A program made the translations under genes and the position numbers. A stretch of 64,000 bases of DNA, taken from Euglena gracilis (lineage: Eukaryota). The notes beneath the pieces were generated by a model. It saw only the letters and a list, made by a program, of their open reading frames with translations, was not told where the DNA came from and ran no database searches. Each line of letters begins with the position of its first letter. Position 1 is the first letter of the stretch. Below are positions 14,607-54,011 of the stretch, one piece after another. The stretch is taken from contig CP154954.1 in NCBI GenBank assembly GCA_039621445.1, positions 8,310,634 to 8,374,633 of the forward strand. The letters run 5' to 3'.

Positions 14607-14704
14607 GTGTGATCTGACCCTCTATGAAATAACTGGCTCGAAGGAACGTCGATGGCAACAGTTGACAGCACCTGCTTGGTCCACTTTTGCGCAATCTCAT
14701 TGTA

Positions 14705-32481: not shown

Positions 32482-32912
32482 AGTGTACGTCCCACCCCGG
32501 CTTTTCTACTTATGCTTTCGTCCCGGAAAGCCCGTGGGGGGAGTAACGATAAAATTTGCTTCCCTTTTCCCCTTTTGAATGCAAAGCACACAAGCAGAAA
32601 ATTTGGTGGGACCGCAGTCCCTTAGATGAAAGTGACTTTTGCTCTTTCGAGGTTTGTAAAAGAAAGAAAAAAACTTGTATTCAAATGGGACTTCGTCCTC
32701 AGAATTCTAAAACAGAATTGCAAAGCACCAAACCCAATAACCTTGAATTAGGAACCAGTTACTTTCGCTAAGCTTTCGCTAGCTCTGAGATTCTCTCTTT
32801 GTCTTATGGTTTAACCATGCCACTGTGTACAGCCCGGCCGTAGCCAGCTTGTAGGCCGTAGCCCATTGTATCTGGTACACAGTGCCATGGCAGAATGGCC
32901 GCCTGGTACACA
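32482..32912 (-). repeat. 3' LTR of element A
   Basis: Direct repeat of 53582-54011; PPT GAGGGGGA immediately adjacent (32913-32920). Confidence 0.93.
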
Positions 32913-32999
32913 TCCCCCTCACAGGGCTCTGCCCGATTTCTCTTCTGGACCAGGCCAGTCGGGATGCCAGGCACAGTCCCAGGTTCAGGGAGACAGCAC

Positions 33000-35900
33000 C
33001 AGGATACCATGGTCTGGTTCCCAATTACGGTTACCGTGTTTGGAGCACGAAGCACAAAAGAATTCTGGCGCGCATGCTGTGCTTCGTGCGTCTTCTTACT
33101 TGACACCGTAGTGTCTTTGTGGTCTTGAATTTTCGCGATTAACGTGATATCCACCGAACTTAAGGTGATTCCGCCATTGTGTCTTGAAACGGTGTTGAAC
33201 ACGATGATGAAGTGCGTATTCACGCTCGAGACTTCGCTCAATATGCGGGACTACACCCATTTCAGCCGTAACTGATTGTACGATATAGGAAACCCTCAAC
33301 GTTTGCGGGTTTCCTTGAAATAATCACCCATATGTGGGTCTTGTACCAAGGTCATTTCAGTTGGACGTAAGTCTAGGATATCCTTGTCAGGATCATCCAT
33401 GTTGATCCGTGGGATAACCCAACTTTTGACTTCTTGTATTTCCTTGGGCAGTTTCAGCTCTCGGAAAAACTCTCGGAAAAGTTGCAGGCCATATGTAATA
33501 GTTCCATCTTGGATGGTTTGCTGGTACCTGTGGTGGCATCCCAGGCAGAGCGTTGAAATCAACGTTGTGCGCTCGGGATGCACAGGCACAGCGGGTTATG
33601 TGTGGTTTCAGAATGGTGCCAACCCATTCTGAGTAATGTTCGTAACCATGTCGTTCAGGTGGATAGTCAGGCAATAACCATCGTTGTGTGGTTTCCGAAA
33701 CCGTTGAAGGCTTTGTAAAGAGTGGGTAAATGACTCGTTTCCAGTCGTCATCATTGAAGAGTAAGGGCAATCGCGCTTTTGTACATTCCACAGCAAGTCT
33801 GATTCCGCCGGAATCAGTTTGGAAGTCAAAGGCGATTCCGCCGCGGTCAAAAGCCTCAGCTTTCTTGAAACTTTTGTGTTGGTACATTTGTCGTTTTGTT
33901 TTGTAGAAATTGAGGAAATCTTCCAGAACGTCCTCGCTTCCGGGTACGATCGATCTTGAGATTTCCGCCGTCTGCGGGCAAATATATGTCTGCCCGTAGG
34001 CAGTTGACACAGAAAACTGGTACGTCACGGTCTCTGTCCTCTTCCGACCACCGGGAGTTGTTCAGTTTTCTCCAGACAAGGATGCAATCACCACAAATCA
34101 AAGCGGCTGTTTTTGGAACGAATTCATTGTGATGGAAATTTTTCTGTTTGTTGTCAGCATAACAGACATGCACAGCCGGCATGCTGTTACGAATGTTGTG
34201 ACAGACCGTACAGAGCCAGGTTGTTTGGCCATTCGGCCTATTGTCAAACAAGAAGGTTTCCCCAAGGTATTCGGCAAACACTCTTGGTGATCTCGCATTG
34301 TAGAATCGCCAAATATGGCGAACATAATAATTGTACTTTTGTTCGTTGAAAAACAATGGTTCAATCCACTTGTTCAACAACATTCCGCGTTCGCGAACTG
34401 ATTTTATCATGGCAATGCGTTCTTCGACGCTCGGCAGGTTGGAAATAATGTCCTCTTGCCAAAGAGTGGCATTATCGTCAACGGGCATGTTTTCCTCTTG
34501 CGAGGTCTCAGACATTGTATCTTGTCGAGTTCTACCTCGGAGGGTAGAAGTGACCCGGCTTTTCCTGGCCACTTCGGTATATGTTGGTGCTGGTGTGGTA
34601 GCAGCTCGGGTCTTCGCCCGCTTTCCTGATTTGCTACCACTCCCAGGTGGAGGTGGTTTTGGTTCGTTGTGTCGTTCAGCAGGTTTGAACGGTTCTGCAG
34701 GCTGTGGTTTAGCCTTAGGTTTACAGCCTTTCTCTTTCCGCTGTGGCGGAAGGGGGCGTTCTGCAGGCGACTTTGGAGCAGGTTTGACCGTTGATGTGGT
34801 GGTAGGTGGTACGTCAGAAGCCGTCGGTACCACCTGTTCAGGTGTGTGTACCACTACGGGTGTTGTGTCATGTGGTGGCGTTTGTTCGACCGTAGTCGAT
34901 TCAGTTGTTGTCACCACTTCCAGTGTTTGGACATCAGGAGTAGAGCTGGCCGCGTCTGCTGCCAGTGCTGTGGTGGGAGCTGTAGCTTCTTGTGTTGGTT
35001 TCTCGCCAATTCCCGTGTCACCTCGATCGCACCATTGCAACCATCGAGGCTACGCCACTTCGGACGCTTCCGAGGACGCGTTCTGCAGCGCGTCCAACTT
35101 GTGGTGGTATGAGTATAAAGTCGTCTGGGTCTTGGTATCTGTCGATACCTTCTCGTTGTTGTCTTGTGATCAGTTCGCGAAATGCGATTATCTCAGCATC
35201 AGTTACTTCGTGTCCAGCTTCCGCATGTGCGGGAGTAGGTGGAACCACTTCCGTCGAAGGCGCTGCGGCCGTTGTGGAGTCTACAGGCACTTCGGCCATT
35301 GTAAATTCTGCAGGCGCGTCAGGTTCCGCGTCTGGCAATGGTGTTTGTGGTCGTGTTTGAGCAGTCGTTGTAGCTGGCACTTCGGCCCTTAGAGCGTGTT
35401 GTACGCCGGCGTTGTCGGGTTCAGACTCGACAGATGCGGAGGAGACGGAGCGTGTACTGTGTTCATTGTCTGTCCCTTCTTCCATTTCCTCATCGCTGGA
35501 TGACCCAGAAGAGGAAACAGACGAAGAGTCTGAAGAGTGTACGGGAGTGTGTTCCACAGATATGGTAGGTGTAGTTGGAGGTTGTGGCAAACCTTCTTCC
35601 GAACGTTTGGTTGCAGGCTTCGCTGCTGCTTTGGCTGTTGAAGTTGTAGATGTTGCAGCCGTTGGAGGTTGTTCAACTGCAGACTGCGCTGCTTCGGACT
35701 CCGCCGGCTGAGGTTCAGGGAGTTTTATACGTGGTCGCAGACGGAAGTTTTGCCATCCGACAAATTTGTTTCCTCCCGATCCGCGAGGAAGCCAGTCCAG
35801 TATTGGGATGTCCACCCATCCTTATTTGTACGTTTGCCCTTGAAAAATGGGGCAAAGTCCTCTTTTCGGAGGGTTTCGCCAAACAGGCGTTTGATGTACT

Positions 35901-38900
35901 TCCCTTTTCCGTCTTCGTCCCATTCAGGTCGAAGAGGGAGGTATTCTTGTGGGAGTTGTTGTTTAGGGTTGAATATATTGTAGATTTCCAGAGCATAGGA
36001 CACCCATGCTCTCCATTGGAATGTCTGCATGTGCAGAAGCATTTGTCGGTGGTTTCGTCTGGCGTATCCGATTTCCCTGACTTCGAGGCGATTGTGGTAG
36101 ATGTGTCCAAGTAGTCTTCGTTGTTGTTGGGCCTCCGCCCATTCGCGTTGGTGGGGCTGCGCCCTTTGTGCGTTTGGGCGGTCGGTTGTCCGACCGCGCA
36201 CGCCAAAGCCCCAGAAGTCCACGGGGAACTTGTGGTGGCAGTGGGTGCACCAAAGCACGAATTTTTGTGGGTATGTCAGGTCGATTCCGACCACTTGGAA
36301 GTTGGGGCCGTAGTGTTCGTTGAGGAACATTTGGTAGTTGTAACATAACATTTCGTGTGCCACCAATTGTATATCCTTTGGAAGAGGGAATACTTCCCAT
36401 TGTATGCCTTGTGGTCCGATTTCTCGGATATTGTCGAACATTGTCTTCAGTGCGTCAAGGAACGATTATCATCCGTATTGTAGCTTTGGATATGGCAAGT
36501 AGTGCGCTTGGCTGGCGGGCATTGCAAATGAACCGAAGTTCATGCAATGAAATCCGAGCCAGAAAAGTAGTTGCCAGAAACCCGGCAAATTGTCGATGCC
36601 ATCCTGGCTTTCGTAACAGGAGATTGTACCGTCGAAGAAAAAGCCACGGGCTTTTTCCTTGTAGAGTTTGACCATGTTGTGATGTACTTCAGGAGCAACA
36701 ACCCAAGGGTGTTGTTCCTCATACTACTTGTGCATAATTGTATCACATCCGTCTGAGATCCAGAACAGATGGTCAATCATAAATTGTACGTCCAGGTCGT
36801 AACCCGGTTGTGAGCCTTCGCTCTTTCCTTTGCCTTTCTGGCCTTTTCTGTCCTTTTGCGACTTCGCGCTCTTGTTCGTTCCAACGGTATGCACCGTCTT
36901 TTCGGTATGCTCGAGTTTTTCTCCACATTGTAACAGTTACACCTGCGGTGTAGTGTCCAGGAATGTCATCAGAGGGTTTGTCTGGTCGCATTTGATGATA
37001 GATTTCTTGTAATGATCGTTGAACGTTGGACGGGATCGGCAAGCCATCATTGTCCTGACGATCACGTTGCGCCTGCGCGCTTTGTGGATCGTCGTCCAAA
37101 CGACGACGTTGTGTGTCTGGCGTTGGACGTGTTTGTGGTGGTGTCGCAAACTCCGGTCCACGTGGACGTTTGCGCGCGTCAACGTTGTATGGTTTTGCTG
37201 GGGCCGTCAAATGTTGTAGAGCTTCCTTGTAGGTGGCGCGTTGTGCTGGCGACTCAAACCTGGGTTGACGTCGAGAAAGGTTGTCCCGGTTCAACAGGTG
37301 GTTGTGTCTGTCCAGCCGAAGCCGGTTGTGAAGGTGTTGTGACAGGAGGTGCTCGAACAGGAATTGTAGATTGTGCGGGTGCATTTGCACGTGCCGACTG
37401 CGCGTCTTGAGCAGGGGGTCCTGTTCGTTGTATAGGTACAGGTTGGTTTGAACCTGCTGCCGATGCGGCAGGCGGAATAGATGTTGATTGTGCAGTCGAA
37501 ACTGCTTGTACCGGTTTTGTTTGTGGTGCCGGAGTAGGTTGAGCTACTGGCGGCACGAGATTTGACGCCGAAGCGAGTTGTTCCATTGGACCAGGTGGAT
37601 GTGGTGGCGCATTCACACGCAAAACTTCGGGTAGTGCCCAGGTGGGTATACCCAAAATTTTGGAGTTTGGACCAATGCCATCCATTATCACTCCTTTCAC
37701 GTTGATGGCTCCCTAATGGGATCCAAGTTCGTAAATTTTGTCAAGGGGAAGGTACTGTTCTCCTTTGGTTGTGTAAGCGAAATCCGCAGATTGTGGTACT
37801 CGTTCATAGTGAATATTGTCCACTACGGGACGCAGGGGATTTTCTCCGACAACCCGTATCGCTGTCGGTTCCGGCAGCGGCACGGCGGGAGTTGTCGGTG
37901 GTTGCGGTTGAGATTGTACCGATGGTTGAGTTTGTACGGGTTGTAGTGGTTGGGGAGCTGGCTGAGGTTGTTCGTCAGTTTCCATGGTAGACTCCGGCTC
38001 TGGTTCTGCCGTTGTATACTCGTCATAAGGCTCTTCGGCCATCTCGTCGGGATAGTTGTCGTATGACTCTTCGGCCTGCATAGCGTACTGTGATTGCATA
38101 CCAGCCTCCCAGTTCCGGGCAGGTGGCATGTGTGGGGGAGAGGAAAAACGTTGTTGTGGTAAGTATATTGGTTCTTGCATTTGTACATCACCCATCTCAC
38201 TTTCTGTGAGTTCAGGAGTATAACGGCGCATGTGTTCGGCGTAAGCACCCACGGGGTGCACTCCGCGGAGCACAGGCGGGACCAGGACTCCCAGGTCCCT
38301 GAGGGTTACGTTGTCTGGAAATCCGGATTCACCGGGTTTGAAGAAGATTCTACCCGCTATCGTACTCTGGGACCACATGTCCCAGGTGGCGATAGGCTTG
38401 TTGGCGATTGCAAGCAATTGTCGGCAGTACGAATCCCACATCACTCGGATGAAGGGATCCGGTCTGTCCTCTGCGCACATGCGCAGAGCGTTACGAATTG
38501 TATCTGTTGAAGCCGTTGTCAGTTCACCCATGTACTTGGGGAACCGAGGCATAACGGGAGCGGCATACTGCCTTTGTGGAGGTTCTGGTTGTGTGGCATA
38601 CTGCCCTTGTGAGGGTTGTGCGGTTTACTGCCCTTGAGGAAGTTGTGCGGCATACTGCCCTTGTGGCGGTTGTGTGGGGTAATAATGACTACGTAGTTGT
38701 TCAGCCCATTGTCGTTGTTCAGATTGGATATATTGTTGTTCTACCGCCGCAAAAGCAGCGCGTTGGCTACTGCTACTGGCCAGATCGTATCTCCTTGGGG
38801 CCGCTGTTGCGGCACCGCAAACTGTTCACAGGCAGATTCCGTTTGTTGTGGAATCCTAGGTTGAGATTGTATGCCACCAAGTGTCGTTTGTTCTGGAGCA

Positions 38901-39169
38901 ACATGCGGAACCGCATGTTGAGTCACAGGGGGCTTTGCCACTACGGACCTTGCTGCCGGAGCAGCTTGTAACGGAGGGGCTGCCACTACGGGCCTTGCTG
39001 CCGAAGCAGCTTGTACATGCCGAACAGGGACTTGCTCTCCACGAGGGAGTGCAAGTCCTCGTCCTCCCGAAGGAGGTTGTGGGTGAGGGGGTCCTCCCGT
39101 AGGAGGTTGTCCAGGGGGAACATACGGTTGGGAGGATGGAGGACCAGGTCCCCTTCCTCCAGCATCCAT
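33000..39169 (-). pseudogene. Element A large extra 3' ORF (Pro/Gln-rich with Cys/His motifs; frameshifted)
   Basis: Near-continuous chain of sense-strand ORFs from MDAGGRGP (39169) to near the PPT; includes CTVC..HVC..H..CGDC..CVNC. Confidence 0.65.
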
Positions 39170-39496
39170 CTTGAAAAAAAAGTAGATAGTAGCAAGTGCT
39201 GAGCTGTGGGGAAACAGAGAAATAAGGCATTGTACGGTAACATTGTACGCATGCAACGAAGTGCACACAAACACAAAAATATTTGCATGTGTGCAATAAT
39301 TGTAAACGAAAATTGCAGCTCCCAGTGTAAAAATCGGTTTTCGCTAAAGGACCGTAGTCCTTTAGCGAAAAGTCCTTCGCTAGGGACAAAATGGTTTGGC
39401 ATTCGCCCATTGTACATTTTCGCATCCGCCCATTATACATTTTGTCGAAAGTCCATGCTATGGACAAAATCTTGGACATCTTTGTATATCCTTCCT

Positions 39497-39594
39497 TAGA
39501 AGGTATTTACAGAAATGTTAATGTTGTCTCGTTTGTTCCATAGCTTCCAGTCTTGCTGGATGTAACCAACAAAACTAGTTGCTGGTTCCCAAGT
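39497..39594 (-). pseudogene. Element A chromodomain C-part and pol stop
   Basis: TWEPATSFVGYIQQDWKLWN...TAA; completes WKGYGPEEG|TWEP. Confidence 0.85.
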
Positions 39595-41134
39595 TGTGGC
39601 ATTGGACATGTCCCTACCTTTCAGATAAATTAGGACTGAGTGCGCGCGCTGCACACTGTAAATTCTGTTTTTTCTGTTCAGTCAAACCTCATGAGTTGAT
39701 TGCTGGGCCGTTGGGTCGTGGCCCCCTGGCATATATCTGTACCATGGGACTGACTGGGGATTTGGAGATTTGAGTTTTGCGCTGTGGTTGAAGTTTGAAA
39801 ATTTGAAGTGGAATTGGCCTGCCAATGGGGCGGAAGGCAAAGCCCAAGGCAAAGGCAAAACCCAAGGCGAAGCCGCAGCCAGCCAAACAGGGGGCCCGGG
39901 GTCGGGCGGCAGAAAAGGTGTGGATTGCGAAGAGAGCCGCCACCCCGGCGCCGCCCCTGTTTCACAATCAACTCGCCTGTGACGACCAGTCAGATGACAC
40001 AGTGGAGCATGCTGGACTGGTGCATGCACCAGTGGGACATTCTGGCGCTGGAATTGGTCAACATGTTCAAGATGTACATTCCGGTCATTTGGGCCATGCC
40101 GCAGATGCACATGGGGTGCATGCTGCAGATGCCGCAGATGCACATGGGGTGCATGCTGCAGAGGCCTCACATGCACATGGGGTGCATCTTGGGGGTGGCC
40201 TGACTGGAGATGCAGATGACAGAGGTGTACATGCAATGGCGGCCAGGTCAGGGCAGATGGTGGATGCCCTGGCCCGGCATGCTGAAGTTGGGCATGAGGG
40301 GGGCACGACCCGGCCATGTACAACCGCTCAGGGTTTGGCCACTCAGAAAGCCGGTTGTGCTTCGGCCGCCGAGAAAGGGTCCCCCAGCAGAGCTTAGGCC
40401 GCTGTGGGGACATGCAGCATTGAGCATGAAGGCATTGCGCATTACGACATTGGGCATTCCGACATCGAGGATGACGGCATTGGGAATGTCGACATCGAGG
40501 ATGACGGCATGGGACATGCAGCTGCAGACCCCAACAGTGCTCCGGCCGTTCGGGCGATGGAGATACAAACCGCCAGCCGCGCTGCGGCCGCTGGGGTCCC
40601 TAGGTTCTCCAATGTGGGTGATGGTGATGTACCGATGGAGATCCAAACCCCCAGCTGTGCTTCGGCCGCGGGGGTCCCTGAGTTCTCCGTCCTGGCGTGA
40701 TTGGGGTCCCGCCTGGAGAAGGACGGAAGTGTGATGGATTTTGCTGGGCTGATCTTGGATGCCACTGTGGGGTGAGTGGCGGCCAGCCCAATCTGGGAGG
40801 CCAAGACATCTCCGAAGGACCAGCTGGAAGCAGTGCATCGTCGCCGAGGGCGGAGGCTACGCCGGCGGCAGTGGATGAGTCCATAGCGGAGTCTCGACGA
40901 CTGGCCGTGCGGTACGAGCGAGAAGCCCGAGTTCGACACAGGGATGCGCTGTCGGAGATGAGGCCGCTGACGGAGACGGAGAAGCAAAAGAGGCGGAAGG
41001 ACCGCCTGCTCCACCACCAGGGACGGTGGGAGTGAGGAGGAGTGGCCGAACCGAAGAGGCGGCCCGGGTAACGGGCGAAGAGTCCGCCCCGCCAGCCCTC
41101 CCGTTTAGAGTTGGCCTGCATTTTGGGTTCCCCT

Positions 41135-42210
41135 CCTGGTGGGTTACGACCCCAGGTTGGGGGTGATGCGGGTTTTGGGGAATTACGAGTGACAAATGAC
41201 CCATCTGGTGTGTTTCGACCCCAGGTGGGGGGGGTTATTGTTTCGTATGTTGAGTGTGATAAATGACCCATCTGGTGTGTTTCGACCCAGGTTGGGGGGC
41301 ACATTACTGTTTCCGGCATGAGATGAGATGACCCATCTGGTGTGTTTCGACCCCAGGTTGGGGGGGCACATTACAGTTTTCGGAATGAGATGAGATGACC
41401 CATCTGGTGTGTTTCGACCCCAGTTTGGGGGGTACATTACCATTTTGGGAAGGAGATGAGATGACCCATCTGGTGTGTTTCGACCCCAGGTGGGGGGGTA
41501 CATTACCGTTTTTTGGCCCCTGGTGAGTTACGACCCCAAGGGACGCCTGGCCCGGTGACATTGTTGGTTTGATGGTCGAAGGTGTCCCGTCCTCCCCCTT
41601 GGCTGTAATGCCCTGGTGGGAATGTTGGAGGCCTGCCCTGGAAGTGGTGGGTTTGTTTTGACGGTTCAAGTTTCGACATTGGACATTACCATATTTTGAC
41701 ATTGGACCACGATCGTTGCCTTATCGCCTTTGTTTTTCAGCCTGGAACCCAGTGAGTCTCGACCCTGGGGGTGGGAGGCTTTTAGATTCGGAGAGAGTGC
41801 GAGAGTTTTGTGGGTTCATGGCCCCAGGCCCCTCACCCGCTGAGTTTCGACCGCGGGGTGGGGGGGTATTTCCAGTTTTGAGTTTTCTTTTTTTTCAGAG
41901 AATTCCAACCCGGACCTGTCACCCGCCGAGTTTCGACCGCGGGGGGGGGGGCAGCCTTCTTTTTGATGATGTTCGGGTTGGAGCCTTTCCATTCGAATTC
42001 CATTCATGGGGGGTTTTGGGCCCGAGCCCCCACCCGCTGAGTTTCGACCGCGGGGGGGGGCGTTTTCAGTTTTGGAATTTTCAGTTTTCAGTACAAGGCC
42101 CTGGGGCCCCCGCCCGCCGGTTTCGACCGCGGGGGGGGGGGCAGATTTATGTTTTCGGTGCGCTTTGGCCCCGGTGGCCCCCCAGTTGAGTTTCGACCAC
42201 GGGGTGGGGG
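41135..42210 (+). repeat. Array of ~13 related stem-loops in element B
   Basis: Core TGWGTTTCGACC enclosed by complementary flanks; five ~63-bp tandem units followed by dispersed copies. Confidence 0.85.
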
Positions 42211-42480
42211 GGTGGAGGAGGACATGTCCAACGACCAAGGGAGTCAAGTATGGAGACTGGGTCTCCTTTTGGGAAGGGGAGTGTGGCATTGGACATGTCC
42301 CTACCTTTCAGATAAATTAGGACTGAGTGCGCGCGCTGCACACTGTAAATTCTGTTTTTTCTGTTCAGTCAAACCTCATGAGTTGATTGCTGGGCCGTTG
42401 GGTCGTGGCCCCCTGGCATATATCTGTACCATGGGACTGACTGGGGATTTGGAGATTTGAGTTTTGCGCTGTGGTTGAAG

Positions 42481-43471
42481 TTCCTCTGCATGGATTTTCT
42501 TGAACTTGAACCTTGCAAAGGAACAGATGACGAAATTTACGATTACGTTCTTGTTGTCGTCTGTCGGCTGAGTCGGTACATTGTAGCCATTCCATGCCAC
42601 AAAGCAGGGTTGACAGCACAAGTTTTAGCACAAATGTTTTTAGAAAGATGCATTTGCCTCATGGGTTTACTGAATTGAATCGTGAGTTATCAAGACCATT
42701 TGATTTCTTCTCGATTTTTTACAACTCTTTGCGGTTTACTCGGAATTGAGCAGCATTTTTCTATCATTTATCGTCCAAAAGGCAATGGTCGCGCTGAATC
42801 GGCAGTGAAAGCTGTAGTCAACATGCTACGACTTCAACTGGCCGAATCGCACAATGCCTGGCTACAAGTATTACCCTGGTGTTTGTTTTATATTAACACT
42901 TTACCGGGGGTGGTACTACAATACTCACCGTACAAGATCGTCTTCGGACGTGATCCCCCAGCCATTGGCGACATCCCGTGAGAACGACCTGCTCGTTCTA
43001 GCGTGAGTTGCGAAACATGGTTCTCTGAAGTAGAATCATTGCGCACGGATGTGCAAAAGCGCGTAGTCGCTATACACTTACAAAAACAAAAACAATTCTT
43101 ACAGGATTGCAAATCACCGATATACAACCCAGGTGACCGCGTGTGGGTTAGGAACACTAGAACCCGCATGCAATCCACGAAGTTGGACCCCCTCTGGATC
43201 GGACCATGCGAGATCCTCGATCGGTTGAGTACAAGTGGGCGCTACAAAGTCGCTTTACCCAACGGTGTCGAGGATGTGCACATGGATGACTTTAAACCAT
43301 ACCTGACTCCACCAAACGGTAAAGCCATACCCTGTCTCTACTTCAAACCAAGGTCAAAACTGCCTGAGACAGATGATTTTGTCGTTGACAAAATCCTCGA
43401 CCACAAAGTAGACAGAGGTATACATTACTGGAAAGTACGGTGGAAAGGATATGGTCCCGAAGAGGGCACTT
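42481..43471 (+). pseudogene. Element A integrase core, GPY/F-like region and chromodomain N-part, inverted relative to the rest of A
   Basis: CMDFLEL, YRPKGNGRAE, KLDPLWIGP, FVVDKILDHK..YWKVRWKGYGPEEG. Confidence 0.9.
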
Positions 43472-43632
43472 TGAAACAGGGGCGGCGCCGGGGTGGGGGC
43501 TCTCTTCTCAATCCACAGCTTTTCTGCCGCCCGACCCCGGGCCCCCTGTTTGGCTGGCTTCGGCTTCGCCTTGGGTTTTGCCTTTGCCTTGGGCTTTGCC
43601 TTCCGCCCCATTGGCAGGCCAATTCTACTTCA

Positions 43633-43944
43633 TTTGGTACGGGGAAGAAGTCCATCGTACCAGGGGGGGCTACCTCTGCGCGGATTCACAGCTTGGCAAA
43701 TTTGGCACCGTTGCGAAATTTGTAAACAGCGCTTATACAGACCTTTTTTGGTCAGGGTTGTACAGTACCTGCGACCCACCAAAGAAAGAAGTTTGGGGGC
43801 CCCAGGGTGACCTTGGTTGTGATAACATAAAAGTACGTCATCAACCAAGTCACAGGGTATGCAGTACTGGTAACCGGTACCATTCCAAAAAATCAAACGT
43901 AAAGGCGACAAGGTATAATTCGTAACCAATTCACCATTACGCAA
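43633..43944 (-). pseudogene. Element A integrase zinc-binding (HHCC) domain
   Basis: HNQGHPG...CQICQ. Confidence 0.85.
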
Positions 43945-44064
43945 TCTTTGTACGACAGCATTGTAAAAATCATCTTCGAAAAAAGAGAGGGGATGGAGAT
44001 TCTGATCGCGTGACCCGGCGGGGGCCCGGCATTCTGCCGCGTTGTCATTTTCCCCGTACGGGGG

Positions 44065-45640
44065 CTATTGACATCCGCCGCCAAATCCGCGAGACAGGAA
44101 AATTGTCAAAAGTAGGTTGTCAGCGGCGTCTGCGCGTCTTGCGTATTCGTCGGCTTCGCGACTTCCGTGGAACGTGGCATCACCCTCGTCAGGGTTACCA
44201 GGGTAATGCCAGGGTGCACGTGAAAGTGGGTCTGCGACTTTTTGAGTATGACCTGGTGTGTAAGCTACCACCAGGTTGAATTGACTCAAAAATTCGTGCC
44301 ATCGGCATCCTCGGCCAACTGAGGACACGGCTTTGTTCAAGTCTTCGGTTAGCAGTGTTGGAGAGACTCATGGTCTGTCAACACTAGTATTTGTACGAGT
44401 GAACTGGCGACCCAACTTCGGAATTTTTGTAGGATAAGGACAATGGCATACGTCTCCTTTTCTCGTATGCTCCATTTGACTTGTTTCTCTTCCGTCTTCA
44501 CCTTGTAGCTTTCTGCTGAAGAATGCTACAGGGCGCAGTTCATTGGACGAGTTATGTTGACTCAACACACCGCCGACAGCATAGTCACTGCTGTCCACCT
44601 CAAGTACGTATGGTTTGTACGGGTCGGCAATGTCAAGTACAACGTTGTCCAACATCAGTTGTTTAATTGTCGTTAGTGATTCTCTCATTGTATCATCCCA
44701 TTGTATCTTTGTGTTGTCAGGAGCGCGATTTTTGAGTTGCCGCGTCAGAGGTACCGCGATTTTCGCGAAATCCTTCATGTAAATCGCGTAATACTGCGCT
44801 AAACCCAAAAATCCTTTTAAATGGGTGATTGTGTTGATTTTTTCAGGTGTCCACGTCTTTATAGCTTCGAGTTTGCTTGGAGATGCTCTCCTTTGTCCGT
44901 TACTAAGAATGTGTCCACAAAATTTTATCGTTTCGCGAAACAAATGCATTTTCGCACCTTTGACGAAAAGCAAATGTTTTTGAAATGTTGTCAGTACGGA
45001 ACGGATATCGCGGTAGTGAATATCAAGGATATCACTACCCGAATTTGTAAGTGGAGGCGGTGTGCCTATCAGCACGTCATCAATGTATACCATTGCAAAC
45101 GGTGAGTCTCGCAAAATCCATTGTATCATTCTTTCGAACATGGATGGGCCATTCTTAACACCCATTGGTAACACCGTCCATTGGTAAACTCCACGAGAGG
45201 TTACAAATGCGGTGTATGGTTGTGAGTCAGGGTGTAAGTGCATCTAATGAAAACCACCTTCTAAGTCGAAAATCGACCAGAGGCGGTTTTCCACTTGTTT
45301 TGTAATCAGGTCTTCGATAAGCGGTAACGGAAATGGATCGTCTTTTGTCTGTGAGTTCAAGTATCGGTAATCCAGCACAAGTCTCCACTTCTTCTCTCCA
45401 GAAGCATCGGGAGGCTTGGGTACAACAAAAGCTTGTGAGGTCCACTCGCTTTTGAGGGTATGATCCATTTTCGTTCAATCAGTTTTTTGATCATTGTATT
45501 GAGAGCTTGTTCTCTTTCGCCTGAACAGCGAAAGAGTTTTCGGTGCATGGGCTGTGCACCTTCTTTGAGTTCGATTTTACAGACACCAAAAGGTCCGCGA
45601 ATTGCAGGATCTATGTCATGGGCATAGATAGGATGTTCTA
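44065..45640 (-). pseudogene. Element A reverse transcriptase and RNase H (disrupted)
   Basis: WRLVLDYRYLN, FDLEGGFH, LPMGVKNGP, YIDD, VDSSDYAVGGVLSQ, VADPLSR. Confidence 0.93.
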
Positions 45641-45819
45641 AATCATCACTGAATTCGCGATTGATCTTTGTACATAGTTCTTGTGATTTGGGATGTTGAC
45701 CACCGCTTTCTATCACTGCGGATAGTTGGTATATTTGGTCATTCTGACCTTTATCTCGTAGGAATTTGTCAATGTGGTCTTTTTCCCGTAGGAATTTGGC
45801 AGTGTGGTCGACAGTTCCG

Positions 45820-46165
45820 AATGCATCAAAGAAACAAACACGAAAAACGATTTCTTTCAATGGTGGTAACATGACACCGCAAAAATCTTCAAACAAAGGG
45901 GTATCATTCGGTAAATCCCACCACTGAAAAGTGACATACGTCAATTGTTGGAACCATTCCGCTTCGGGATTTATAGCAATCAGTAGCACACCGCGTGCTT
46001 GATCCCGAAGGATCTTGTCAACGACAAGACGGTTAAGTTTCAGAGGTGGATGTAGCCACAGGACCACATCACCCCAAAACTCATCAAACACATTTGTATG
46101 GCTTGACCAGTAATTGGATAATCGAGAATGTGCTTTGGACGAAAATGTCCATCGACTTCGCGATT
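45820..46165 (-). other. DAM-like N6-adenine methyltransferase domain within gypsy pol
   Basis: VD.FSS..HSRL..YWS...NVF..FW....LWLHPP...LVVDKI..DQARGVLL......WFQQL aligns by eye to the DIRS MT domain (DLFAS..N..L..F...YANPPW..I...L.....LMV.P.W...WWPQL). Confidence 0.7.
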
Positions 46166-47129
46166 TGTGCGATTTTGGAAAACCAGGTTTCCAAAATGCG
46201 GTATTGTCCAAAATTGAACGCATTTCAGATGCGGTTCGCGACAACTGTTGCGGTTTCAGTCCTATGGAGGGTTGAAACACAGTTTACCGAGCCACATCGG
46301 TAATACGTGGTGTCCGAAGACACTTCATCAGGCATTATACCAGGTGTATCAGGTGTATTGTGTAGAGGACAATTGTCGTTGGCATTCTGCCAGTTGTATG
46401 CAGGGACATTGGAGGGGTTGGCATTCTGCCATTCGGGGTCAGAGAGATTGGCTTTCTGCCATTGGACGTCCTGTTGTGCGATTCTCGCGATTCCGAACAG
46501 GGACGCGATTCCGCGTTTGTCCAATTGTTGATGTACTTCAACACACAACGGGTAACAACCCGGTGTGTTGTGTTCTCGTTCAGCGGCCAGGGTAAACTTG
46601 GTACCGGTTCCGGTATCAAGTATCCTCTTGTTGTTGTGTAAAGCGATTAGTTTGGAAGGTTCAACAATACATCCACAGTCGAAATCAGGTTGTGTGGAAA
46701 TTCTCCGGCAATGTGCGCATTGGTAGAAAGTGTCGGTCTGGTAATACCTGTCAGTCACGTGTAGTGTGTTCATGGGGGTGTTGGAAGTTGTAGCTGCTGG
46801 GGGGTGTACAGGGGTGTCCGAAATCGACGCACGTTGTGCAGCTGGGCGGCTACTCGACACCAAATTTGTTCAGGTCTTTGGGCTTTCGCCTTGGAACCCA
46901 GTGAAACGTGGGGGGTTAAGCTACTCGATTCCCCTACCGCATGGGAAACGTGCGGTATAAGTGTGATGGGCAGGGGGGCAGCTTTCTCTTTACCCCTAGG
47001 GTAGGAACCGGTGTTTTCGGTTGTAGAAAATGTTGTGGCCAGGCGGGGGGACATCTGGGGAGATGTCATGGGGGAGAAGTTCGGTGGTGTGGGTTGTGTG
47101 CGTGAAGTAGTGCGCAAACCGAGGGAGGG

Positions 47130-47708
47130 GCAATCCACAATAAGGCGGTTCTGAACCAAGAACGGAAAACCCAAAATTACGTCAGAGCCGCGAATACCCG
47201 ATTCGTAACTCCAGGTACCCAGAAAATTTTGTATGTGCGGGGGGTGTGAGTGGTGCTTGGGGATGATGGGGAGGAGTATGTCCAAAAAGCATCCCAAGTC
47301 ACCACCACACATGGGGCTGTTGTCAGCAGTCATAATTTTGATGGGGTACTTGGCTTTCACCAAGAGGGAGTTGGGAATTAATCACGTTCGAAAGAGAAGG
47401 GGGATTCGACACCCTGTGTTGACCAAAATTTTGCATTTGGTAGAAAAATTTTGTGTTCGGATTTCCGCTTGGACTAAAAGTTCCATGGGGGGTACGCGAA
47501 GTGCAGGATCCGGTGTAAAATTGTTGTCTCTCCAACTATTCCAGGATCCTGTTCCTACTTTGCTCAGCATCCCAGGCAGAAATTTGGAGTGGGGGGTGGG
47601 GGACCCGAAAATTTTCCGGGCACCGACCAAAAAGGCAGATGGGCAGGGTAAGTAAGGTTGATCAGGTCCTACTTCCGTCTGTTCATCAGCCCAGAGGTCC
47701 GTGCCCAC
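47130..47708 (-). pseudogene. Element A aspartic protease
   Basis: ILVNTGC (ILVDTGC in element C) and DVILGFPFL. Confidence 0.85.
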
Positions 47709-49170
47709 AGACCTCGGGCTCCCCTCCTCAAGTCCGAATCAGCACTTCGCCTGTTTATCGTTTTCTTGTGTGAGTAGATAGCGCGCAATGCGCGGACCGC
47801 ATTGCGGTCATCCTCCAACGAGGATTCGGAGTTCTCATCCCCCTCCCTGCCTGAAGCCGGGGTTCCCTCCTCCAAAGAGGAGATTTTGAACCCGACCTTG
47901 TGTTTGTTGTTGTGTTTTGTATCACTGTGGTGACGTTGGTTCGGGCGGGGAGAGCGAGACTGGAACATTTGGAGGAATGGTGGTTGTGTGATCCACAAAG
48001 GGAACACTTTTGTCGGTTTTGTTACTGTTGTCAGTTTTGTGATGGGCTTTCACCCCTTGGAGGTCTTGGTGAACGGAATCCCGTTCGACCACGGTCGTTG
48101 TAACCCGGTTTCCCGGATGACGATCTCGAAGAAGATGATCCACTTCGCGAACGTGATCGCGATGAGTCGCGATTTGTATCACGTTTGTAAGGGGGTCGGG
48201 GTGATCGACCACGAGGTGCGTGATTGCGTCCGCGATCGCGGAACGGTGATCGGGACCTTTGTCGATATCCCGAAGATTGTGATTGTCCAGATTTGTGCGA
48301 ATATCCGGAGGAGCGCGAGCTCTGCGAGGATTGTGAACCCCTTGGTCTCTGATACCGCTTTCGCGTATCAGGGTGGGGGCAGTCACGGGACGTATGTCCC
48401 GCTTTGTTGCACAAAAAGCAAGTTTTGTCAGAAGATTGGTCAGATGAGCGCGGATAGCGCGTTTTTGTATCTCCCCTTGGGGAGTTTGTATGTTTACCAA
48501 ATCCCCTTGGGGATTTTGGTGATTTTGGAGAAGAAGCCTTTTGTAGGGCACTTACCGTACCGCTAGGGAGACCAGCGGTAGGGTGGTGGGTGTAAGCCGA
48601 TTGTATCTGTCCCAAAAGTTGTGAGGTTTTTATTTGTTTGGAAACATAGTTCCATCGTTGTTCAAGTGTGAGTTTGTTGTCCGCGAGTTCCTCGCGGTGG
48701 ATGTCTTTGATAATTGTAGGAATGAAATGGAGGAGAACCGCATCGAATTGTTCCTTCGTTTGGTTCTCTCCCAGTTCATCAACTTCAGAAGCCAATCCCA
48801 ACCATTTGGAATACCAAAGGTCGATTGACTTCCATTTACGGTCACTGGGCGCGAATTGTCGCAATTTCTTCTCCAGCGTAATTCGCGAAATGAGGCTTGA
48901 ACAGGTTGACGCATATTGGTCAACCAGTTCCTCAAAAGTAATCCGATTCCGGATCACAAGTTGTCGGGCGCGTTCTTTTTCTTCCTTGGGGAGGCAATCA
49001 ATGAATTACATCTTGATTACCTCAGGGTTCCCGTCTTGGGTTGGACCCTTCAAGTCCCAGTCCTAGTCGTCGCGCCAAAATTGTTTCCAAGTTGTGGGAT
49101 AGCCGTCCCATGGTGGCATACCCTTGTTGGCAATTGTAATGTACCTTTGAAATTGCGTTGTGGACCGTGA
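47669..49170 (-). pseudogene. Element A gag core with two CCHC zinc knuckles and an RS-rich linker
   Basis: CFLCNKAGHTSRDC and CSLCGSHNHHSSKC; capsid-like helical region in ORF 48031..48957. Confidence 0.85.
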
Positions 49171-49199
49171 TTTCCATCGTAATGTTGGGGTGTTGTGTT

Positions 49200-49990
49200 T
49201 TTGGTGGGGGGGGGGGGGCGAGCGATGCCAATGAAAAGAAAGTAATTGGGACTTCGTTGTTTTTGGATTTTTTGGTTGAGTTCGGAAAAGATTCCCCCTT
49301 CTTTGTGGCATATTGAATCGCCTTTGTTTCCCCCCCCCAAGTTTTCATTACCGCACATTCCCCCTTTTTCTTTTGCACTTTTTGTTGTTTCATCCTTCTT
49401 CCGCCAATACTTATCACCTTGGAGTTTTTTTGTCCCGTTTAAATCCGGGATTGTCTCCGGCGCAGGGAAAAAGGAATGATCATCCGAACATGCTTATGAA
49501 CTCTTTTTTCCATTTTCTCTTTTTTTCTTCCTTTTCTCTTGCCACTCTCTTTTTCTCCTTTTTTTTCGTTCTTTTTTCAGCCCTTCTTACCTTCTTTTTT
49601 TTTTCCTTTTTTGATTTTTCATTTTTCCCCTTTTTCCACCTCCCTCCGTTTTTTTTGCTGTTCCCAGAAATTCTCCAAATAATATGGGGTTCCGGCATTG
49701 GGGAAAATTTTTGTCCGGGGAGGATTTTCCTGAAAATGTAGCGTAAAAAATAACAATTCTCCTGCCACAACAAAAACAATGGACTTTTCGGCCATCTACC
49801 TCCCTGGAAATTTTCCCAAGACCACAAGTGCGAAGACCCCAAAGTCCCGGGTTGGGTGCCATGGGGTTTCGGGACGGGGAAAATCGTGACATTTTTGGAA
49901 AAAAATAAAAAAATACAATCCCTTGTTTTTGGCCGGGACTTCGGGCGTAAACCTGGGGGTATTATGGGGGGGGGGGACCATGGGCACATT
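49200..49990. mobile_element. Low-complexity insertion within element A (boundaries approximate)
   Basis: T/C-rich, homopolymer-rich block with no counterpart in element C; interrupts the reading frame. Confidence 0.45.
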
Positions 49991-49999
49991 TTCTTGGTA

Positions 50000-52900
50000 C
50001 ATCGCAATTCCGCGGTTGTATGGTTGTGGTTCGCGATTCCGCGATTCGGATTGTAAAGGGTCGCGATTCCGCGATTCGGGTTGTTGGCAAATACCAGGGG
50101 GGGTAGGAATTCCTGTTGTTCACCCGCAAATCGGGGAACCGCGGTAAATTCCGTGTTTCGCATTCGCGATCCATGGCCAATACCCGGGGTAGGGGTATTG
50201 CTCATACCGCGAATCAGTCCCGATTCGCGAATTTCCTGTTGTAAAACCGGAGGATTCACGGTTTTTGTGGTAAAAACCGGTTCCTCATCCGAAGATTCAC
50301 CCTTAGGGGGTGAATCTTACGTTGTGGTATAAACGGGCGATTGTAATCGCGACTGTAGGCCTGTTCACGACCATGTGCATCCGTGGATGCTTGTAGGGCA
50401 TGCGCACCCGAAGTTGCTGGTAGGTGTGCGCATACTGCGCTTTTGGAAGGATTGGCATCCAACGAATCGCGAATTTGATGCACAAAGTCGCGAGTTGGAC
50501 GTAGGGCATCCGAAGATGCTTCGGTTGATGCGCGAAAAGTGCGTTGTGAGCTGGAAGTTGCATTTTGACCACCGAAAACACGGTTTTCAGGGGCAAAGTG
50601 CGGGGGGTTGCGGGATTTTGCATGAATCTCGTCCAAACTCGATGCAAAATCTTGGATACTTTGTTCCAATGAACCAACCACTTGGAAAAGGTCCGAAATT
50701 CGTTCAACATCACCCTGCAAACGCTTAATACGTTTGCGGAATGATGGTAACTCATCCAAAAGTGGTAATTTGTCAACAATGGAGTCAAAATCCGCGGAAA
50801 GCTTTGGAAAAGTGGTGTCCAAGAATTGGACCCGATTAACCAAAGTTTCCATTGCGGTTGTAAGGGTGTTCAACCGATTCTTGGTTTGTGGGGTTGTGGT
50901 ACCCAACGTGGGTTTAGGTACCCCTACCGCATTTTCAGCGGTTTTGTCGTCCATTATTGTAGAAAGTCGGTTCTCCAACACCGAAATTTGTCGTTTTAGT
51001 GTGAGAACTTGTTGGGTGACCGAATTTTCGGTCCTCTTCAACGTTTCACAAAATTCTTGTAAGTTTTCCTGATTTTTCGCAAGCATTTGGTCGTAAAATG
51101 TACGAAAATCAAGGGGTAGTTCGACTTCGCGAACCGTTTGTCCATCCGAGGATGGTTGGAGTCCGGAGACCCTTATAGAAAGTGTTTGTACGCGTTTTTG
51201 TAAATGGGAAGTGGTGGATTGTAAGGTTTTGTGTTGGGTATTCAAATACGCAAGTGCGGTTTCAATGCCGGTGACATCCGGAATTGATTTTTGAATACCG
51301 TTGCACCGTTTGTGCAAATCCGCAAACGCGGATTCGATCTTGTTCACATCCGCTTGTAACTGATTTTGAAAATCGGTTACAGTGCATCGTAATGCTCCCA
51401 TACTGGGATTTTTGGTGGAAATTTCTGCAAAGCGGCGTTGTAAGTCCGCAATTGCAGTTTGTAGTCCCGAAACATCCGCACAAGCGGTTTTCAGGTCTGC
51501 AAACGCAATTTGGAGGTCCGCATTCGCGGTTTGGATGGTAGTTATGACCGTTTCTCGGTCTTGGAGTTCCGCATTCACAGTTTGTAAGCTAAGAATAACC
51601 GCATCGCGGGATTGGAGTTCCGCCGTAGCGGTTTGTAGCGCATTGGAAGCAGTTTCAAGTTTTTTTTATATCGTTTTGCCACTTTTCATGGAGGAAATCT
51701 TGCCGATGGGCGATCTCCGCCACTTGAGTGTGCAATGTGGTCAAATTGTGGGAAACTTCACCGCATTTGCAGGAAGTTTGTTCCAAACGAGCAATCCGCT
51801 CTTCCAGTTGTTGCGCAAAAGCTCTTTGTACATAGTTTTCGCGTATTTGTATAAAATTTTGATGAAAACTCGCGTTGTCATTACCCAAACACAAAATGTG
51901 TTCTTGGGAGTGTTGTACAACATTGGACAGGGTTGAGAAGTTGAGAAGTGCTCATTTGAGACATATGAGCCAAGTTCCGCACCCGTAGGCGCTTTATCCC
52001 GTTGTTGTAGGCGGGACTGCATATCTTGCATTGTATAAGAAACGTTTTCCAGTTGTGTGAACAATTGTTGTACATTTTGTTGTAAATGTGAAAATTTTGC
52101 GTTATTCCGTGATTCCGCGGTGTGGAGGGTCTCTTGTACCTGTTGGAAGTTGTGTACCAAGGTGTTGCGCAAAAATGCGTCAAAACCTTGGTGGATGTTC
52201 TGGAGTTCCATGGTAGTGGAGTTGAAATTCTTTTGGCAAATTGTCCAAATTCTTGGACATATTCCCAAATGAAATCCAGCTTGACGAAAACGGCCTTGTG
52301 ACTGTCTTCATCAAATTGTAGGACTTGGTTCAGTGTTTTAGCGCAATTTTGGACACATGCTTCGATGTGTCGAAATTTCTGTTGTAGTGGGTGGTTCTCC
52401 GGTAAATTTGCGACTACGCGCTCAACGGTATTACTGGAGAACGAATCCCGGTCTTCCTCGGGGTCATTGTCCATGGGAACAATGACACCGGCAGTGTCCG
52501 GGACCACCAACCGCATTTCAGGCGGACCAAGGTAGTTCTGGTATTTCTCCAAATTGTGGAGGGGGGGCAAGTCCCGAATGGGGCTTACCAGTGGTAGGGC
52601 CGGGGGGGTTGGAAAAAAAAGGTGTTTCCAACCCGTCCTCGGAAGGGGGGGGCTCTCTAGGCAATTGGGTGCCAAAAGGCACTAATTGCCAGTCCCGTTC
52701 GGGCATTCTGCCCACTTGTGAGTGAGACTCCGCAGAAGCGGAGGGGGTCCGTAGACCCATTGTAGGGTTATGTTGCACCGCAAGTGCGGCTATTTTAACG
52801 GTGGGTCCGCGAATCCGGGTTGGGTCCGTAGACCCTTGGAGGGGGAGGGGACCGCCAAAGCGGCTTGGGTCCGAAGACCCTTGGAGGGGGGGGGGCACCG

Positions 52901-53282
52901 CCAAAGCGGCTTGTGTCCGAAAACCCTTGTAGGGGGTGGGGCACCGCAAAAGCGGCTTGTGTCCGAAGACCCTGGGAGGGGGGGGGGCACCGCCGAAGCG
53001 GCTTGGGTCCGAAGACCCTTGGAGGGGGGGGCACCGCCGAAGCGGCTTGTTGTAGGGGGGGGGGCACCGCTAATGCGGTTTGGGTTCGAAAACCCAGTTG
53101 TGGGGGGGGGGTACCGCCGAAGCGGCTTGGGCGTCCGCCCCTTGTACGGAAACTTTTTCCACCGCAGAAGCGGCTTGGGCATCCACCCCTTGTGGATAAA
53201 AATTTTCTGTCGCTAAAGCGACTTGGGCATCCGCCCCTTGTAAGGAAAAATTTCCTGTCGCCGTAGCGACTTCGTCTGCATT
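50000..53282 (-). pseudogene. Element A coiled-coil ORF or Gag N-terminal extension (frameshifted)
   Basis: Chain of ORFs 52518-52949, 51881-52675, 51741-52268 and 50256-51578 with heptad-like L/Q/E repeats; homologous to element C 61450-63100. Confidence 0.65.
52730..53270 (-). repeat. ~46-48-bp tandem repeat built from paired hairpins, in the leader of element A
   Basis: Alternating CCGC-NNNN-GCGG and GGGTC-NNNN-GACCC units. Confidence 0.85.
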
Positions 53283-53563
53283 CTGCAGTCCACGAAACGA
53301 ACCTATTAACAAAGCATAGTTAATAGGTGCGTTTCCAGTGTGTGCATGTGCACTTTGCATTTCAGATGAAAAATTGGGAAAATTTTTGTGAGAATCTCAA
53401 AAATTGTAAACATTGTAAAAATTTGTGTGAAAAGACCCAAAAGGATAAGCAAACGTGGGGGCTCAGAGGCTTTGTGATGCAGCCGTAGCCACTTGTTCCC
53501 CTGAGACACCTCGCCCATGCTTAGGCGCCTTTTTCTGAGTTTTGATTTGGTCGTTCCACCGTT

Positions 53564-53581
53564 AAACCTATTCTGCTACCA
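53564..53581 (-). promoter_or_regulatory. Primer-binding site, initiator tRNA-Met type
   Basis: TGGTAGCAGAATAGGTTT directly after the LTR; TGGTAGCAGA is complementary to the 3' end of eukaryotic tRNAi-Met. Confidence 0.8.
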
Positions 53582-54011
53582 AGTGTACGTCCCACCCTGG
53601 CTTTTCTACTTATGCTTTCTTCCCGAAAAGCCCGTGGGGGGAGTAACAATAAAATTTGCTTCCCTTTTCCCCTTTTGAATGCAAAGCACACAAGCAGAAG
53701 AATTGGTGGGACCGCAGTCCCTTTTATGAAAGTGACTTTTGCTCTTTCGAGGTTTGTAAATGAAAGAAATAAAACCTGTATTCAAATGGGTCTTCGCCCT
53801 CAGAATTCTAAGCAGATTTGCACAGCACCAAACCCAATGACCTTGAATTAGGAACCAGTTACTTTCGCTAAGCTTTCACTAGCTCTGAGATTCTCTCTTT
53901 GTCTTATGGTTTAACCATGCCACTGTGTACAGCCCGGCCGTAGCCAGCTTGTAGGCCGTAGCCCATTGTATCTGGACACAGTGCCATGGCAGAATGGCTG
54001 CCTGGTACACA
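53582..54011 (-). repeat. 5' LTR of element A
   Basis: Sense termini TGTGTAC...GTACACT; PBS abuts it. Confidence 0.93.

Follow-up and report, generated by a model that had tools for sequence, protein, structure and literature searches.

A stretch of 64,000 nucleotides from Euglena gracilis (contig CP154954.1, positions 8,310,634 to 8,374,633; hereafter the window, numbered from its first letter) contains a non-coding, putatively self-priming long terminal repeat (LTR) retrotransposon of ~3.06 kb, here called element B, whose sense strand is the plus strand. The internal region of B carries 18 hairpins of one modular design, in which the outer stem is free in sequence and constant in pairing and a conserved, bulged head ends in a UNCG tetraloop. 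The support for this structure is in-register covariation, not stability. Tentatively, and with somewhat less than even confidence, we read the modules as repeated docking sites for Gag/nucleocapsid on RNA; we infer both that the RNA folds as such a module in the cell and that the ligand is a Gag/nucleocapsid protein.

The hairpin module and its covariation

The nine-base core of the head, GTTWCGACC, matches at 14 sites, of which 12 lie at 41143-42198, all on the plus strand; the expectation for the whole window is 0.75, and the highest count over 100 dinucleotide shuffles was four. Together with copy 8, whose variant head reads GAGTCTCGACC, the 12 exact 9-mers make up 13 same-strand copies within 41135-42203. 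The initial annotation, which had proposed about 13 head copies in an array, was thus right on a number that is far above chance. Five further hairpins with a related head lie upstream of the array (Table 1). In the shared design the outer stem comprises at least 5 bp; the 5′ side has two single-base bulges (N and N) flanking an invariant G-C pair, and the inner part consists of a second invariant G-C pair followed by a Y-R pair and the tetraloop.

The 18 hairpins (15 distinct rows) were selected by their heads, not by the pairing of their arms, and were aligned without forcing. When the structure (((((.(.((....)))))))) is counted over 119 cells, 93.3% of the cells pair in register, as compared with 77.7% for shuffled partners, and none of 500 shuffles reached the observed value; sliding the partners by 1-3 columns lowers pairing to 26-53%. 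Four of the eight pairs change on both sides (22 cells, in counts that ignore the relatedness of the copies), the types seen in them being CG/UA/AU/GC, GC/AU, CG/GC/UA and UA/CG, and the two G-C pairs are invariant. The combination of a conserved head with compensatory stem changes, as first proposed, therefore stands. The same annotation had folded the head itself into a short helix under a UNCG tetraloop, and this is backed by the pair next to the loop: on the plus strand of B's internal region it occurs 13 times as GTTNCGAC (U-A) and four times as GCTNCGGC (C-G), with no mixed form and never a G.U-like or C.A-like one. It is this pair of the mini-stem that is switched on both sides, from U-A to C-G, between the array head and the upstream heads. 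The loops are UUCG (12), UACG (2), UCCG, UGCG, CUCG and UUAG (one each), so that 16 of the 18 are UNCG, all four variants of which are present; variation is thus mainly at the free N.

Every arm type listed at the outset (CCTGG/CCAGG, CTGG/CCAG, CCCAG/CTGGG and CCCGC/GCGGG) is present. The enclosing stems are longer than had been stated, however, reaching 9-13 bp, with C-rich 5′ flanks that pair with runs of G. In copy 12 the helix is uninterrupted, exactly the second bulge base having been lost. In copy 13 of the window, an A at 42184 disrupts the pairing; read as C, this position yields a sixth arm type, CCCCGT/ACGGGG. The majority letter among public copies of the family is indeed C in run X1 (8868 of a depth of 8955) and likewise in runs X2 and X17, which restores the pair. 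At 41293, where the window has T, the majority letter is G, and the 3′ arm of copy 3 becomes identical to those of copies 2 and 6.

A covariance model built from the 18 hairpins of B (R2) finds in the window just these 18 at E below 0.001. The next-best scores belong to 42154-42175 (E 0.094) and to a metagenome locus, L001 (E 0.093). The latter was the single contig, with a single site, returned by a metagenome scan with a 22-nt degenerate head-plus-arm pattern, which is about the chance level, and no relatives were gained in this way; at 94-121 of that contig a head-like GAGTTTCGACC stands between a partial stem and a G-run.

Copies c02 to c06 are a young tandem expansion of 66 bp, and it is only this young part that Tandem Repeats Finder reports (41196-41512, 66-bp unit, 4.8 copies, 84% matches). 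Among the nine old copies, mean pairwise identity is 0.87 in the 11-nt head and 0.46 in the spacers, the latter being the level of shuffled spacers. The array is accordingly an old tandem repeat of which the hairpin part alone has been retained. The earlier description of the spacers as unrelated agrees with their random-level identity; in an alignment of whole units, judged by eye, a G-run still follows each hairpin and a GTTTT(C/G)RG-like stretch appears 10-15 nt further on in most units. The G-runs comprise 5-11 G after 12 of the 13 array hairpins, and only 3-5 G after c07 (3 G) and the five upstream hairpins.

This organisation invites another explanation, namely that the repeats are a by-product of replication, a hypervariable tandem-repeat zone ahead of the polypurine tract (PPT) produced by slippage of reverse transcriptase (RT) or by abnormal strand transfer, with neither ligand nor function. 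Hairpins and G-runs that stall RT would then seed their own duplication. We regard this as unlikely on balance, though as the likeliest of the rivals to docking by Gag. The position upstream of the PPT, the 66-bp tandem organisation, the decay of the older units and the variation of unit number and G-run length among family copies would all follow from it. Moreover, such regions and such a mechanism are described for Ogre/Tat elements in a portion of PMC7004042 (citing Macas 2009), and part of PMC5737552 reports that RNA structure and G-rich sequence promote RT slippage. A neutral repeat should, however, decay evenly, which is at odds with heads at 0.87 beside spacers at the random level; pairing is preserved through changes on both sides, the head helix covaries as well, and the loops remain within UNCG. 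Correction by template switching at palindromes would account for the matched arms, but not for a fixed asymmetric head.

The assignment of the module to the plus strand rests on the orientation of B, given by its primer-binding site (PBS) and PPT, and on loops that read UNCG rather than CGNA. Loops of the other strand would read CGNA, outside the known stable classes, and it is in RNA, not in DNA, that UNCG confers extra stability. Folding of 41120-42220 gives -462 kcal/mol for the plus strand and -349 kcal/mol for the minus strand, a difference that we do not count, since the plus strand is G+U-rich and composition confounds the comparison. These considerations also bear on a signal acting at the DNA level, in the form of protein-binding sites, G-quadruplex runs or extra PPT-like primer tracts for plus-strand synthesis in the cDNA. 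Such a signal would suit a conserved 11-nt word repeated in one orientation, and purine-rich 3′ arms and G-runs placed ahead of the true PPT. A double-stranded site nevertheless gives no reason for hairpin-like covariation of the flanks or for a constant UNCG loop, and the G-runs contain interspersed C and T and are in part base-paired to the 5′ arms; we consider a DNA-level role improbable.

Two known structures that the module might mimic were rejected. The nonconventional intron ends of Euglena (C-D-G...C-H′-G stem) obey a code that the CCCGC/GCGGG type misfits, and the units measure ~30 nt. A tRNA-like module (T-arm, B box) has a loop of 7 nt, not 4, and ARAGORN finds no tRNA in the window.

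Element B and its family

The carrier of the array had been taken for a non-autonomous LTR element, and this view is borne out by its LTRs, PBS, PPT and target-site duplication (TSD) and by the lack of any Pfam family (E up to 0.01) in the 13 open reading frames (ORFs) of B that were tested on both strands. The defining features of non-autonomous elements resembling terminal-repeat retrotransposons in miniature (TRIMs) or large retrotransposon derivatives (LARDs), namely LTRs, TSD, PBS and PPT without gag/pol coding, are thus all found in B. As B has no coding capacity, only cis-acting RNA or DNA signals in it are selectable. The best reading is that it depends on the proteins of another element, as we propose. 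A peptide repeat, on either strand, might still have been suspected from the ~66-bp unit (22 codons) and from minus-strand open frames of 114-256 amino acids across the array. Head-to-head distances of 67, 65, 67 and 66 nt keep no frame, however; the frames change along the array and, as said, none of the 13 ORFs matches Pfam. We reject this explanation, whose probability is close to nil.

The insertion site of element B is the chromodomain of H, a giant chromovirus that runs on the minus strand. One half of the chromodomain is read from the reverse complement of 39480-39594 (TWEPATSF...*) and the other from the plus strand at 43351-43470 (...WKGYGPEEGT); the two overlap by ACTT, which identifies the 4-bp TSD of B. 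This duplication splits a single chromodomain codon run, the right flank of which is presently inverted. The inverted segment, 42483-43632, comprises H from the integrase core through the chromodomain together with the terminal 161 bp of B's LTR, and it corrects the LTR length from the 201 bp given initially to 370 bp. At the breakpoints, 8 nt of B's LTR and ~17 nt of H's integrase are missing. Public contigs have loose ends at 39594 and 42483, consistent with the inversion; position 39964 shows raised depth and heterogeneous loose ends in the public runs. The displaced LTR piece is 96.9% identical to 39804-39964. The LTR copies thus differ at 5 of 161 positions in one part and at 0 of 201 in the other, which might reflect gene conversion or repair at the inversion; at 39876 the family majority letter is the one found in the inverted piece.

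Immediately after the 5′ LTR, ten bases are exactly complementary to a stretch within the LTR, and of 20000 shuffled LTRs only 26 contain such a match. The arrangement is characteristic of Tf1/Tj1-type self-priming, which for B is a prediction from the sequence. The PPT, which abuts the 3′ LTR, was read directly. The hairpins extend over 40351-42203, or ~80% of the 2.3-kb internal region, and lie 386-2238 nt past the PBS. The initial placement of the motif just upstream of the PPT therefore holds for the array, which ends ~68 nt before it, but not for the hairpins as a whole, which begin at 40351. Other short tandem repeats occur in the interior of B at 40096-40187 (33 bp), 40417-40519 (15/30 bp) and 40555-40701 (78 bp), the 78-bp unit bearing hairpins u4 and u5.

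Table 1. Coordinates of element B, its hairpins and the surrounding chromovirus in the window
Feature	Position	Strand	Remarks
Left TSD copy	39591..39594	+	AAGT; within antisense chromodomain of host element H
5′ LTR of B	39595..39964	+	370 bp; TG...CA ends (starts TGTGG, ends TTTCA)
Presumed transcript 5′ end (self-primer)	39693..39702	+	GAGTTGATTG; within LTR; exactly complementary to 39965-39974
Putative self-priming PBS	39965..39974	+	CAATCAACTC; immediately 3′ of 5′ LTR
Upstream group, five hairpins	40351..40672	+	head NGNGC-UNNG-GCC
u1	40351-40372	+	head TGTGCTTCGGCC, loop UUCG
u2	40384-40405	+	head AGAGCTTAGGCC, loop UUAG
u3	40531-40552	+	head AGTGCTCCGGCC, loop UCCG
u4	40573-40594	+	head CGCGCTGCGGCC, loop UGCG
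u5	40651-40672	+	head TGTGCTTCGGCC, loop UUCG
Array, 13 hairpins	41135..42203	+	head TGTGT-TTCG-ACC
c01	41135-41156	+	head start 41141
c02	41204-41225	+	head start 41210
c03	41271-41291	+	head start 41277
c04	41336-41357	+	head start 41342
c05	41403-41424	+	head start 41409
c06	41469-41490	+	head start 41475
c07	41519-41540	+	head start 41525
Degenerate 14th head	41670..41677	+	GTTTCGAC; no pairing arms, no G-run
c08	41748-41769	+	head start 41754
c09	41836-41857	+	head start 41842
c10	41922-41943	+	head start 41928
c11	42033-42054	+	head start 42039
c12	42113-42133	+	head start 42118
c13	42182-42203	+	head start 42188
PPT	42271..42281	+	GGGAAGGGGAG; abuts 3′ LTR
3′ LTR of B, first 201 bp	42282..42482	+	100% identical to 39595-39795
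Right TSD copy	43468..43471	+	ACTT on plus, AAGT on minus
3′ LTR of B, last 161 bp	43472..43632	-	displaced by inversion of 42483-43632
Chromovirus H	32482..54011	-	LTRs 53582-54011 and 32482-32912, 95% identical

Element B also has relatives in public data. Among the 24 public runs listed, of which none that matches B is on record as RNA, 20 contain 29-46% of the sampled words of B. In the three contig runs examined over 39300-42800, thousands of short contigs cover all of B, which indicates a multi-copy family, found under two organism labels; the flanking chromovirus is 10-50 times deeper than B. Joints within the family skip 330, 234 or 229 nt or go back by 57, 120 or 313 nt, implying members with fewer or more 66-bp units, and the length of the G-runs varies. 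Of the 40 differences from the majority letter that were listed, out of 142, 17 fall in 41123-42218, two of them in hairpin arms and none in a head, where 2.2 would be expected by our own arithmetic, a deficit that is not significant alone. An RNA raw-read run, X24, of which ~5% was read, gave no reads on B and none on the very abundant flanking chromovirus either, and hence constitutes no test of transcription.

Hairpins of the host chromovirus

Chromovirus H encodes a zinc-knuckle Gag, RT-RNase H and an integrase with a chromodomain, and its PBS is of the tRNA type. On its sense strand it bears ~38 hairpins that combine A-A, a 5-bp stem and a UNCG loop, where ~1.7 are expected. UNCG loops closed by at least 4 pairs number 17 on the minus strand (expected 0.63) and none on the plus strand in the 3′ part of H, and 21 (expected 1.09) and one, respectively, in its 5′ part; the flipped segment of H has a single UNCG match, on the plus strand, as the inversion predicts. 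Similarly, among the 197 perfect hairpins with a 5-bp stem and a 4-nt loop outside the satellite, the commonest loops are CGAA (10) and CGTA (8), which read UUCG and UACG on the minus strand; every one of these hairpins is situated within H. By comparison, the 15 minus-strand matches at 6301-32481 belong to a 10-bp microsatellite (12), to simple CG/TG repeats (2) and to another sequence (1). The microsatellite, (CGGCTGCGGT)n at 6747-7926 on the minus strand, mimics UGCG hairpins and was excluded as an artefact.

For 35 non-redundant H hairpins, selected by stem and loop alone, pair counts are circular, since pairing was itself the criterion of choice, a flaw that does not affect the statistics on shuffles, strand, loop and flanks. 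A is found at -1 in 29 and at -2 in 29 of the 35, as compared with a background of 0.29, and is also the commonest base after the stem (19/35). The closing pair is C-G in 29 of the 35, and the loops are UACG (15), UUCG (15), UCCG (3) and UGCG (2). By our own count of these rows, the stems measure 5 bp in 25 cases, 4 bp in five, 6 bp in four and 15 bp in one. The hairpins lie in the LTRs, in the 5′ leader and in ORFs, there in all three codon phases and with unrelated peptides. They are densest in the 5′ leader at ~52740-53290, where two alternating hairpins and a C-run form a tandem array, at 36500-39400 and in both LTRs. This motif family is cleaner and larger than the array motif of B. At one coding site that is homologous in a relative, H2 (55-62 kb), the relative has no hairpin, that of H having been made by substitutions and not by insertion; such hairpins are lacking in H2.

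A covariance model of the H hairpins (R1) recovers more sites in H and nothing convincing outside it, the best match in B having an E of 3.4. Given this result and the tRNA-type priming of H, H is probably not the partner of B, and we consider it unlikely to be B's helper. An 11-mer shared by the first copy in B (GGGU-UACG-ACCC) and the H hairpin at 36791-36810 hints at shared descent or convergence.

Elsewhere in the window, a plus-strand repeat at 14700-14970 contains heads resembling those of B, namely GGGGGTGTTACGACC with a C-run after it and two occurrences of CATTTACGACCACCCCC (R2, E 1.6), and is located inside a long-range inverted repeat of C-runs and G-runs with GTCGTAC. A 151-bp satellite occupies 1-5700, in higher-order blocks ~1.0-1.17 kb apart whose copies are 96-100% alike. 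On the minus strand, an ORF for RT at 25846-27798 matches Dam methylase weakly (E 0.0015, which does not reach the Pfam cut-off), and at 27889-31321 there is a large inverted repeat of three blocks that are 80-85% identical.

What the modules may bind, and comparison with known systems

On our preferred reading, the modules would be high-affinity docking sites for the Gag/nucleocapsid of an autonomous partner, working together as multivalent packaging signals. In this manner B, a parasite of a parasite, would win encapsidation into virus-like particles. Gag is favoured as the ligand because selection on a non-coding element can act solely on its cis signals, be they for transcription, packaging, priming or integration, because the densest array of H lies in its leader, and because the nucleocapsid (NC) zinc knuckles of Rous sarcoma virus (RSV) hold a UNCG-type loop together with unpaired adenosines. 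Indeed, the 5′ leader, in which the hairpins of H are densest, is where retroviral packaging signals lie.

Several observations weigh against docking by Gag. The hairpins of B stand outside the 5′ leader and reach the PPT, whereas retroviral packaging signals are usually found in the leader. The autonomous partner of B lies outside the window, H probably not being that partner. The closing pair is U-A in 13 of the 18 hairpins and C-G in only five, the especially stable C-G form being the minority. Single hairpins do not fold clearly better than their dinucleotide shuffles, eight z-scores being -1.47, -1.48, +1.12, -2.08, -1.83, -0.74, -1.49 and -4.00. Nor does the energy of arm-swapped chimeras discriminate (-14.9 as compared with -16.8 kcal/mol for the native arms), since C-rich and G-rich flanks pair in any combination and swaps therefore cost little. 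As the copies descend from each other, the independent compensatory switches, by our own count of pair types, number about seven, not 22, and the counts of G.U and C.A (~3 vs 2) do not fix the strand. Finally, in RSV a change of UGCG to UUUG had little effect on packaging, according to a portion of PMC7291142.

Alternatively, the modules may serve a host factor, as an export element akin to the constitutive transport element (CTE) or the RNA transport element (RTE), as a barrier to exonucleases made of hairpin and G-run, or as a signal for translation or localisation. The position of the module, in the 3′ untranslated part beside the 3′ LTR, is also that of retroviral transport elements. Multivalency, stable tetraloops and the runs of 5-11 G after nearly all array hairpins would suit a barrier, and in yeast exonucleases are blocked by poly(G) tracts. 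Likewise, the occurrence of similar hairpins along the entire RNA of H, within coding parts as well, would fit a general RNA-handling factor. There is, however, no resemblance to any Rfam family, transport elements among them, and the difference between the modules of H and B is better explained by element-specific proteins than by a single host factor. A host-factor role thus appears rather doubtful to us, and docking by Gag/nucleocapsid remains our preferred explanation.

It is tempting to generalise this explanation, although here we are less confident still. The LTR retrotransposons of this euglenid might mark their genomic RNA with sharply defined, family-specific UNCG hairpins, a repeated address label to be read by their own nucleocapsid. 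In H the label would consist of A-A, 5 bp and UNCG, repeated ~38 times along an 18-kb RNA, and in B of a bulged variant repeated ~18 times in 2.3 kb. Were this true, B would amount to little else than two LTRs around concentrated labels, out-competing its helper for capsids, and a retrotransposon would have a dispersed packaging code, a natural counterpart of engineered hairpin-array tags. Outside yeast and retroviruses, little is understood of how LTR retrotransposons choose the RNA that they package, and how non-coding hitch-hikers get chosen is also unclear; here a candidate signal can be read from the sequence. The fixed head, free stems and many copies, together with the cleaner motif of H beside a zinc-knuckle Gag, make the question testable and the model searchable genome-wide. 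Should the modules serve export or RNA stability instead, they would represent a new class of cis-element in Euglenozoa, where RNA handling is unusual.

The proposal that the RNA motif could be undescribed agrees with the searches made. Rfam 15 yields no match at E up to 1 in 38500-43500 and none at the gathering score in the whole window, so that no family matches the motif. No such arrays are described in the openly accessible main texts searched on retrotransposon UUCG/tetraloop hairpins and packaging. We class the array of B as a new instance within the cis-acting structured RNAs of retroelement untranslated regions. Among known structures, the 3′ stem-loop of histone mRNA, the binding site of SLBP, has a conserved 6-bp stem and a UYUN loop. 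It resembles the motif of H in its A-rich 5′ flank, short stem, 4-nt loop beginning with U and A/C 3′ flank; the motif of H differs in its 5-bp stem of free sequence and its UNCG loop, and there is no Rfam match at the gathering score in the window. The CTE of Mason-Pfizer monkey virus (MPMV), the RTE of intracisternal A-particles (IAP) and the MusD transport element (MTE) are structured RNAs upstream of the 3′ LTR that work better in several copies. They are long hairpins with internal loops, unlike the tetraloop-capped modules of B, which have no Rfam match.

Other likenesses concern the element more than its hairpins. In Tf1, Tf2 and Tj1, bases after the LTR are complementary to an LTR-internal stretch presumed to form the transcript's 5′ end, according to part of PMC4600332. 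Element B has an exact 10-nt match of this kind, with a presumed transcript start; the likeness concerns priming, not the hairpin array, and B is non-coding. The repeats of plant Tat/Ogre elements occupy the interval from the coding part to the PPT, consist of monomers variable in sequence and number and are thought to arise in reverse transcription (PMC7004042, in part). B shares with them tandem repeats ahead of the PPT with variable unit number and sequence. No conserved covarying hairpin is reported for Tat/Ogre repeats in that portion of the source, and host and lineage are different; B keeps an 11-nt head and has the rest randomised.

Closest in its ingredients is the stem-loop SL-C of the RSV packaging signal (M-Psi/mu-Psi), a UGCG (UNCG-type) loop contacted by an NC zinc knuckle and flanked by unpaired adenosines, as described in parts of PMC7291142 and PMC7599994. 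Both are hairpins of retroelement RNA with a UNCG-type cap, and the motif of H, with its A-A flank, short stem and UNCG, combines the same elements. The RSV loop is, however, a single one in a three-way junction of the 5′ leader and is secondary for packaging (PMC7291142, in part), whereas B has ~18 stand-alone bulged modules, mostly closed by U-A; the two share no sequence similarity, and B is known from its sequence alone. In their arrangement, the modules come nearest to dispersed packaging signals, which are stem-loops with a common loop motif and varied stems that make multivalent contacts with coat protein (PMC6281560, PMC5699041 and PMC7612645, each in part). As in the signals of single-stranded RNA viruses and of the hepatitis B virus pregenome (MS2, satellite tobacco necrosis virus, parechovirus; loop motifs such as RGAG), many hairpins share one loop motif on free stems. 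The viral signals, as far as these sources go, are degenerate motifs across the genomes of icosahedral viruses, whereas the motif of B is sharply defined and tandemly amplified in the retrotransposon of a protist.

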